DNA of 64,000 nucleotides from Escherichia coli (GCF_044647545.1 NZ_CP172818.1); one strand, 5' to 3'. Positions 23,424-25,190 are shown, numbered from the stretch's first letter. Made by a program: numbers and translations. Notes: generated by a model not told the origin, from the sequence alone.

Positions 23424-25190
23424 ATGCCGCGTGGCCTGGAATTACTGATTGCACAAACCATTTTGCAAGGCTTCGATGCTCAGTATGGTCGATTCCTCGA
23501 AGTGACTTCCGGGGCGCAGCAGCGTTTCGAACAGGCCGACTGGCATGCTGTCCAGCAGGCGATGAAAAACCGTATCCATCTTTACGATCATCACGTGGGT
23601 CTGGTGGTGGAGCAACTGCGCTGCATTACCAACGGCCAAAGCACGGACGCGGCATTTTTACTGCGCGTCAAAGAGCATTACACGCGGCTGTTGCCGGATT
23701 ACCCGCGCTTCGAGATTGCGGAGAGCTTTTTTAACTCCGTGTACTGTCGGTTATTTGACCACCGCTCGCTTACTCCCGAGCGGCTTTTTATCTTTAGCTC
23801 CCAGCCAGAGCGCCGTTTTCGTACCATTCCGCGCCCGCTGGCGAAAGACTTTCACCCCGATCACGGCTGGGAATCTCTGCTGATGCGTGTTATCAGCGAC
23901 CTGCCGTTGCGTCTGCGCTGGCAGAATAAAAGCCGTGACATTCATTACATCGTTCGCCATCTGACGGAAACGCTGGGGACAGACAACCTCGCGGAAAGTC
24001 ATTTACAGGTGGCGAACGAACTGTTTTACCGCAATAAAGCCGCCTGGCTGGTGGGCAAACTGATCACGCCTTCCGGCACATTGCCATTTTTGCTGCCGAT
24101 CCACCAGACGGACGACGGCGAGTTATTTATTGATACTTGCCTGACGACGACCGCCGAAGCGAGCATTGTTTTTGGCTTTGCGCGTTCTTATTTTATGGTT
24201 TATGCACCGCTGCCCGCAGCGCTGGTCGAGTGGCTACGGGAAATTCTGCCAGGTAAAACCACCGCTGAATTGTATATGGCTATCGGCTGCCAGAAGCACG
24301 CTAAAACCGAAAGCTACCGCGAATATCTCGTTTATCTACAGGGCTGTAATGAGCAGTTCATTGAAGCGCCGGGTATTCGTGGCATGGTGATGCTGGTGTT
24401 TACGTTGCCGGGTTTTGATCGGGTCTTCAAAGTCATCAAAGACAGGTTCGCGCCGCAGAAAGAGATGTCTGCCGCTCACGTTCGTGCCTGCTACCAACTG
24501 GTGAAAGAGCACGATCGTGTGGGCCGAATGGCGGACACCCAGGAGTTTGAAAACTTTGTGCTGGAGAAGCGGCATATTTCCCCGGCATTAATGGAATTAC
24601 TGCTCCAGGAAGCAGCGGAAAAAATCACCGATCTCGGCGAACAAATTGTGATTCGCCATCTTTATATCGAGCGGCGGATGGTGCCGCTCAATATCTGGCT
24701 GGAACAAGTGGAAGGTCAGCAGCTGCGCGACGCCATTGAAGAATACGGTAACGCTATTCGCCAGCTTGCCGCTGCTAACATTTTCCCTGGCGACATGCTG
24801 TTTAAAAACTTCGGTGTCACCCGTCACGGGCGTGTGGTGTTTTATGATTACGATGAAATTTGCTACATGACGGAAGTGAATTTCCGCGACATCCCGCCGC
24901 CGCGCTACCCGGAGGACGAACTTGCCAGTGAGCCGTGGTACAGCGTCTCGCCGGGCGATGTTTTCCCGGAAGAGTTTCGCCATTGGCTATGCGCCGACTC
25001 GCGTATTGGGCCACTGTTTGAAGAGATGCACGCCGACCTGTTCCGCGCCGACTACTGGCGCGCGCTACAAAACCGTATCCGTGACGGGCATGTGGAAGAT
25101 GTTTATGCGTATCGGCGTGGCGTTTGGTATCGTAGCGAAAAAGTCAGCGCATTCCACCGTACGCCAGCGTCACTTCCTTCGCCGCTTTAA
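23424..25190 (+). CDS. aceK: Isocitrate dehydrogenase kinase/phosphatase
   Basis: [46 protein letters not shown]... The last ~15 codons overlap the iclR 3' end on the opposite strand; the C-terminal tail differs from the K-12 tail as I recall it. Confidence 0.9.

Follow-up and report, generated by a model that had tools for sequence, protein, structure and literature searches.

The absence of arpA is a well-known, textbook phylogroup marker in E. coli, and phylogroup F has the profile arpA-negative, chuA-positive, yjaA-negative and TspE4.C2-negative. In K-12 MG1655, aceK (578 aa, C-terminus ...RRRQRFSVRYGEMLF) is followed by arpA on the opposite strand and then by iclR. The convergent K-12 aceK and arpA genes overlap by 32 bp (locus positions 5802-5833), and the locus carries ~2.5 kb with arpA, in line with an initial annotation of the DNA studied here, which had placed arpA between aceK and iclR in K-12. 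An excludon consists of overlapping convergent transcripts that repress each other and are expressed reciprocally. The aceK-arpA pair is among the convergent excludon candidates in a previous work (PMC12288877). In the canonical arpA-negative junction of phylogroups B2 and F (and G), aceK and iclR are convergent without arpA, and of the Clermont quadruplex PCR primers AceK.f has a site but ArpA1.r has none. The RefSeq aceK genes of strains 536, FDAARGOS_497, ECONIH1 (NZ_CP009859.1) and MFDS1022581 are 1,725 nt long (574 aa) and end 16 nt before the iclR stop codon; alignment showed the tail RRRQRFSVRFV before the stop, and no overlap with iclR, in all four. Strain 536 is taken here to belong to phylogroup B2. 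The 574-aa and 578-aa forms of AceK are each found on at least 1,000 contigs.

We analyzed the aceK-iclR junction in a 64,000-nt stretch of an E. coli genome record (NZ_CP172818.1), hereafter called the window. According to the ORF list of the window, the aceK ORF occupies 23424-25190 (+) and encodes 588 aa, and the mechanical iclR ORF occupies 25144-26007 (-); the two ORFs overlap by 47 bp (25144-25190), so the aceK end at 25190, the iclR stop at 25144 and the overlap length given in the initial annotation are all correct. The iclR coding sequence (25144-25968, -) is intact, with the start as annotated in relatives, and its 274-aa product is 100% identical to K-12 IclR. Codons 1-565 of aceK (23424-25118, +) are the genuine part of the gene: the encoded protein is 99.5% identical to K-12 AceK residues 1-565, and the nucleotide identity with ECONIH1 aceK is complete. 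These 565 codons and iclR are thus orthologous to the K-12 genes, and the K-12 aceK 3' end likewise overlaps a convergent gene, arpA in that case; the K-12 locus differs in its ~2.5-kb arpA segment and in an AceK that ends ...RYGEMLF.

The sole difference between the window and ECONIH1 across aceK-iclR is a garbled 17-nt patch (25119-25135) in place of the normal 38 nt, which comprise the final 9 codons of aceK, its TAA stop codon and most of the 16-nt spacer. The canonical 38 nt, which in ECONIH1 lie within 4,771,540-4,771,640, contain ...CGTAGGCAGAGGTTTAGCGTTCGATTCGTATAAATCAGAGGCG..., and the version in the window reads ...CGTGGCGTTTGGTATCGTAGCG.... Through loss of the normal stop codon, AceK acquires an aberrant tail of 23 residues (25119-25190, +), which is unlike the K-12 tail, as had been noticed earlier. 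The ORF terminates at a TAA that lies opposite the conserved codons for Ile-Lys in iclR. Already in ECONIH1, the frame of aceK is open for 20 residues beyond its own TAA. The 47-bp length of the overlap is therefore unremarkable, since the aceK stop was lost in frame and the next in-frame TAA is the one antisense to Ile-Lys. The two Pfam domains of the 588-aa AceK, AceK_regulatory (PF20423, residues 10-306) and AceK_kinase (PF06315, residues 310-564), score the same as those of the canonical 574-aa protein, and homology to PDB 3LC6/3EPS covers residues 1-566, stopping at 565-566.

Next, the absence of arpA and the lineage of the window were examined. K-12 ArpA and the arpA region gave no match in the whole 64-kb window by tblastn and blastn, and yjaA was not found in the 64 kb by tblastn/blastn, nor were the yjaA primer sites. 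In silico PCR with the Clermont quadruplex primers (PMC4322292) located the AceK.f site (AACGCTATTCGCCAGCTTGC) at 24750-24769 (+); the window has no ArpA1.r site at up to 4 mismatches and hence yields no 400-bp AceK.f/ArpA1.r amplicon. The K-12 controls gave the expected 400-bp and 211-bp products. Primer sites for chuA and TspE4.C2 were absent from the 64 kb, both loci lying outside the window. The rrfE gene is directly followed by yjaB, as in ECONIH1, and the closest genomes are of the ST648 type (ECONIH1, strain 'ST648', MS6198 and IMT16316). Near-identity to these genomes, together with the assignment of ST648 to phylogroup F (PMC12736214), places the window in phylogroup F with good probability. 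The flanks of the junction are identical to those of ST648 genomes and yjaA is absent, both as in the canonical arpA-negative junction. The initial annotation had read adjacent aceK and iclR without arpA as the arpA-negative configuration and not as a new system, and within the 64 kb this reading stands. We concluded that the locus is very probably the ordinary ancestral arpA-negative arrangement of convergent aceK and iclR of an ST648-like phylogroup F strain. The difference from the canonical junction (574-aa AceK, 16-bp spacer, no overlap) lies in the replacement of 38 nt by 17 nt, which gives 588 aa and the 47-bp overlap.

The distribution of this variant was studied among 5,426 complete E. 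coli genomes, using queries of 901 nt and 171 nt that span the junction. Contiguous matches to the longer query were found in 1,314 of the 5,426 genomes and to the shorter one in 1,308, and every match was 21 nt longer than its query (922 vs 901 nt; 192 vs 171 nt). As expected from a 21-nt gap, 1,302 of the matching genomes fell into the 80-90% identity band. The junction of the window itself was found in none of the 5,426 complete E. coli genomes, and thus in none of the ~1,310 arpA-negative ones. The 588-aa AceK (WP_400165098.1), annotated as full-length AceK in the public record, is a singleton among ~15 billion proteins, present on one 4,499,902-bp contig; an exact-protein contig look-up returned no record for it. 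A 30-mer across the junction had no match in JGI metagenome contigs, a result that is uninformative taken alone, and our literature searches turned up no report of overlapping aceK and iclR genes in E. coli. The initial annotation had proposed that the altered tail and the overlap are specific to arpA-negative (B2/F) lineages, and the absence of arpA and a tail unlike that of K-12 would agree with a form common to such strains. This proposal is refuted by the comparison and is extremely improbable: none of the ~1,310 arpA-negative genomes shares the junction, the protein is a singleton, and the arpA-negative strains examined for conservation of the tail, among them 536 (B2) and the ST648-type ECONIH1 and FDAARGOS_497, have the 574-aa AceK ending in RFV and the 16-bp spacer.

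To place the junction in a wider context, a degenerate version of the AceK motif HVEDVYAYR was searched for in one genome per species, which gave 116 loci. In none of the 116 does arpA adjoin aceK. E. albertii, E. whittamii, Escherichia sp. E1V33 and E. coli SCPM-O-B-8794 all carry the RRRQRFSVRFV tail and a 15-16-bp spacer without arpA. A motif R-[RK]-[RK]-Q-R-F-x-x-R-[YF] follows the kinase domain (which ends at residue 564) in all surveyed species, its R, F and R being conserved in 116/116, 116/116 and 114/116 species representatives, respectively. Beyond RQRFxxR[YF], the AceK tails differ greatly from genus to genus in both length and sequence. In the window, AceK has G-V-W-Y-R-S-E-K at the motif positions and the conserved motif is missing.

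A natural 47-bp aceK/iclR overlap was found in three species (Pseudescherichia vulneris, Enterobacter cloacae M-7 and E. quasihormaechei), with AceK tails ending ...HTPASPLS(R/P)P; ten further species have a natural 4-bp overlap. The P. vulneris and Enterobacter overlaps resemble that of the window in being exactly 47 bp long and in using the identical antisense TAA. This shared overlap length and stop position could suggest that the arrangement was imported by recombination from such a species. We consider an import to have hardly any probability, as both flanks are 100% ECONIH1 up to the 17-nt patch, the junction contains no donor-like nucleotides, and the tail is simply the antisense of E. 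coli iclR and lacks the donor-type RQRFxxRF. The natural overlappers keep RQRFxxR[FY] and only then enter the iclR antisense, whereas the AceK of the window enters it without the motif; furthermore, the overlapping state is private within E. coli and its flanks are pure E. coli ST648.

The composition of the 17-nt patch was analyzed in detail. It lies between the end of K-12 homology (25117) and its resumption (25137), and it is 21 nt shorter, in frame, than the corresponding ECONIH1 sequence. All letters of the 17-mer occur in the same order within the 38-mer, a relation with a chance probability of about 0.006-0.012, but no fewer than 7 deletion blocks are required to derive it by deletion alone; an alternative route takes a minimum of 5 gaps and 3 substitutions within the 38 nt. 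Simple backbones failed: K-12 or ECONIH1 sequence with one or two deletions left 14, 10 and 8 mismatches in the best models. An ectopic template or gene conversion within the window was rejected, the 21-mer being found once in the window at up to 3 mismatches. A hairpin or terminator was also rejected as the cause. The terminator-like site at the iclR end is weak and does not differ between the window and ECONIH1, and the fold energies were no different from those of shuffled sequences.

The junction could in principle be a real, private and complex in-frame microdeletion that removed the aceK stop codon, the isolate making a 588-aa AceK that overlaps iclR by 47 bp. We regard this as unlikely. 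In its favor, the sequence stands in a public record with AceK annotated at full length, the net loss of 21 nt preserves the frame, both the regulatory and the kinase domain are intact, and P. vulneris and two Enterobacter representatives naturally overlap by 47 bp with similar tails. On the other hand, it would presuppose no fewer than 5-7 separate events inside 38 nt, in a clone that shows only 3 substitutions over 64 kb, and it would destroy a C-terminal motif conserved over 116 species that the natural overlappers retain. Both points speak for an artefact instead. A real mutation is further disfavored by comparable private lesions that sit at all K-12 structural breakpoints of the same window, among them K-12-derived junction sequence and a G-depleted block, the latter being explained by no mutational process.

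These lesions were mapped by comparing the window with ECONIH1 over the 64 kb. The two sequences differ by 3 base substitutions, of which one (13347) stands alone and two belong to a lesion at 45915, and by ∼10 indel-type lesions, and are otherwise identical over 1-32577 and 37815-64000. The rrfE/yjaB spacer, which is the yjaA-negative junction (18531-18598), is scrambled: 68 nt replace 103 nt, and the rrnE terminator hairpin is no longer present. Its best match in the 5,426 genomes is only 82% identical, and it sits at a K-12/ECONIH1 breakpoint. The aceA-aceK spacer has an additional AC relative to ECONIH1 (23367-8). A single T is deleted after the pgi stop codon (41342), and a small indel is found in the yjbT-psiE spacer (45915-9).

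At the rluF/yjbD junction (37283-37292, with the change at 37290), the rluF stop codon is lost, giving a RluF of 311 aa vs 290 aa; the extended rluF overlaps the convergent yjbD by 67 bp (region 37271-37358), and the 311-aa RluF is found on one contig only, the same 4,499,902-bp contig. This overlap is of one kind with that of aceK and iclR and likewise very probably spurious. The psiE gene (46051-46488) ends at the xylE-negative junction, xylE being absent between psiE and malG in the window, ECONIH1 and SMS-3-5. Two 1-nt deletions (46453/46458) remove the psiE stop codon and yield a PsiE of 145 aa vs 136 aa (WP_400165100.1), again present only on that single 4,499,902-bp contig.

A further lesion (32578-36384) affects the sorbose operon, the only insertion compared to K-12 that the window retains at all, though in truncated form: 3.8 kb of 6.9 kb are present and the first 2 kb are missing. 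The remaining part contains 431 small gaps compared to ECONIH1. On the + strand, 560 of 1,031 Gs have been deleted and 151 substituted (∼70% lost), and A, C and T are almost all kept; the G content of the block is 4-14% on the + strand vs about 27% elsewhere. Retention of G is partly context-dependent, with about 50% retained in CG and about 15% in AG. Deaminase- or DGR-type mutagenesis was considered for the G-poor block and rejected, as deletion accounts for most of the lost Gs (560) and the 151 substituted ones were replaced equally often by C, A and T. The loss of G fits no biological process and looks like noisy inserted sequence. In the yjbD-lysC spacer (about 37715-37815), the island of ECONIH1 is absent; in ECONIH1 this island is 18 kb long and P2-like. 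Across the window, the interior of conserved genes is free of lesions and the accessory sorbose operon genes are heavily damaged. Random sequencing error was rejected as an explanation: the conserved gene interiors are intact and all lesions lie at K-12 structural breakpoints.

Alignment of ECONIH1 to K-12 over this region shows eight large breaks: the yjaA, arpA and xylE sites, the aceA-aceK spacer, the sorbose insertion, the yjbT-psiE spacer, the REP block at rluF/yjbD together with the island, and the REP block after pgi. All eight carry a lesion in the window, and each lesion in the window coincides with one of these breaks or with an indel between K-12 and ECONIH1; many small K-12/ECONIH1 indels are correctly rendered. 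The rluF/yjbD junction consists of the K-12 left and right flanks with a 136-nt deletion and one T>C change, and the true ST648 junction (...GGGGCGTTAATCAGCG...) is not in the window. Positions 37712-37824 form a 113-nt segment that is 100% identical to K-12, is absent from ECONIH1 and has 3 differences vs SMS-3-5, presumably a phylogroup F strain. Over 37660-37824 the sequence is a chimera, with about 45 nt of ECONIH1-type island-end sequence followed by the 113 nt of K-12. The contig is 4.50 Mb long, slightly shorter than K-12 with its 4.64 Mb, compared to ∼4.7-5.3 Mb for the matched ST648-type records and 5.31 Mb for ECONIH1. In summary of these comparisons, the aceK-iclR junction is private, the lesions of the window coincide with K-12 breakpoints, and K-12 sequence is present at two other junctions.

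Genomes that are reference-guided or patched with structural variants typically have accurate SNPs and small indels, imprecise deletion breakpoints, and insertions that are noisy, truncated or missing. Such pipelines also keep the reference sequence at uncovered spots, and the total length stays near that of the reference. The window resembles such sequences in its accurate small variants, in its breakpoint, insertion and retained-reference patterns and in the length of its contig; for errors of this kind, the strong loss specific to G within the sorbose operon is unusual. The overlap and the AceK tail are thus very probably an artefact of a badly rendered arpA-deletion breakpoint in a K-12-guided record. 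Most simply, the deposited sequence was probably rebuilt on a K-12 MG1655-like backbone, to which single-base differences and small indels would have been transferred correctly and large differences from K-12 badly. Deletions relative to K-12 (arpA, yjaA, xylE and the REP blocks) would then appear as imprecise or garbled breakpoints, and insertions as truncated and noisy sequence (the sorbose operon) or not at all (the 18-kb island). At the arpA breakpoint, the 38 nt would have become 17 nt, at the expense of the final 9 codons of aceK, its TAA and the greater part of the spacer; the in-frame loss of 21 nt would allow the ORF to continue through the iclR antisense to the TAA opposite Ile-Lys, giving 588 aa and the 47-bp overlap. 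Almost certainly, the real organism has the usual 574-aa AceK with a stop codon 16 bp before the iclR stop.

Because models with one or two deletions fail on either backbone, we infer, rather than demonstrate, that the aceK patch arose by the same process as the other lesions, on the basis of co-location and analogy. Three observations weigh against an artefact. First, an in-frame loss and intact interiors of conserved genes would also be expected from selection acting on real mutations. Second, a natural 47-bp overlap exists in three other Enterobacteriaceae, so such a protein is not implausible. Third, the G-specific loss in the sorbose block matches no nameable pipeline in detail.

The biological weight of the junction is small, as arpA absence is a known marker and the true junction is ordinary. 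The finding is a practical warning, as this public record very probably carries reconstruction errors at the very loci used for in silico Clermont typing (the arpA and yjaA sites). Three singleton 'new' proteins have entered the protein databases through it: a 588-aa AceK, a 311-aa RluF and a 145-aa PsiE. The same caution applies to the remaining oddities of the window, i.e., the stop losses, the convergent overlaps, the missing terminator and the G-poor block. If the junction were real, it would encode an AceK with a 23-residue foreign tail from iclR antisense, converging on the arrangement of Pseudescherichia and some Enterobacter; such a stop-loss variant would be of minor interest, since the domains are intact and similar overlaps occur in related genera.

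As a by-product, the species survey gives a hint as to how arpA arose. E. albertii and E. whittamii have the canonical arpA-negative junction in identical form; it is probably ancestral, which suggests from sequence comparison that arpA was inserted in the remaining E. coli phylogroups and not deleted in B2/F. Another rare junction was observed in E. coli HH97 (NZ_CP116409.1), where aceK is annotated as a pseudogene without its C-terminus and ∼480 nt separate aceK from iclR (locus positions 3059-3536), with mere scraps of similarity to the K-12 arpA region; the HH97 junction may represent an independent partial loss of arpA.
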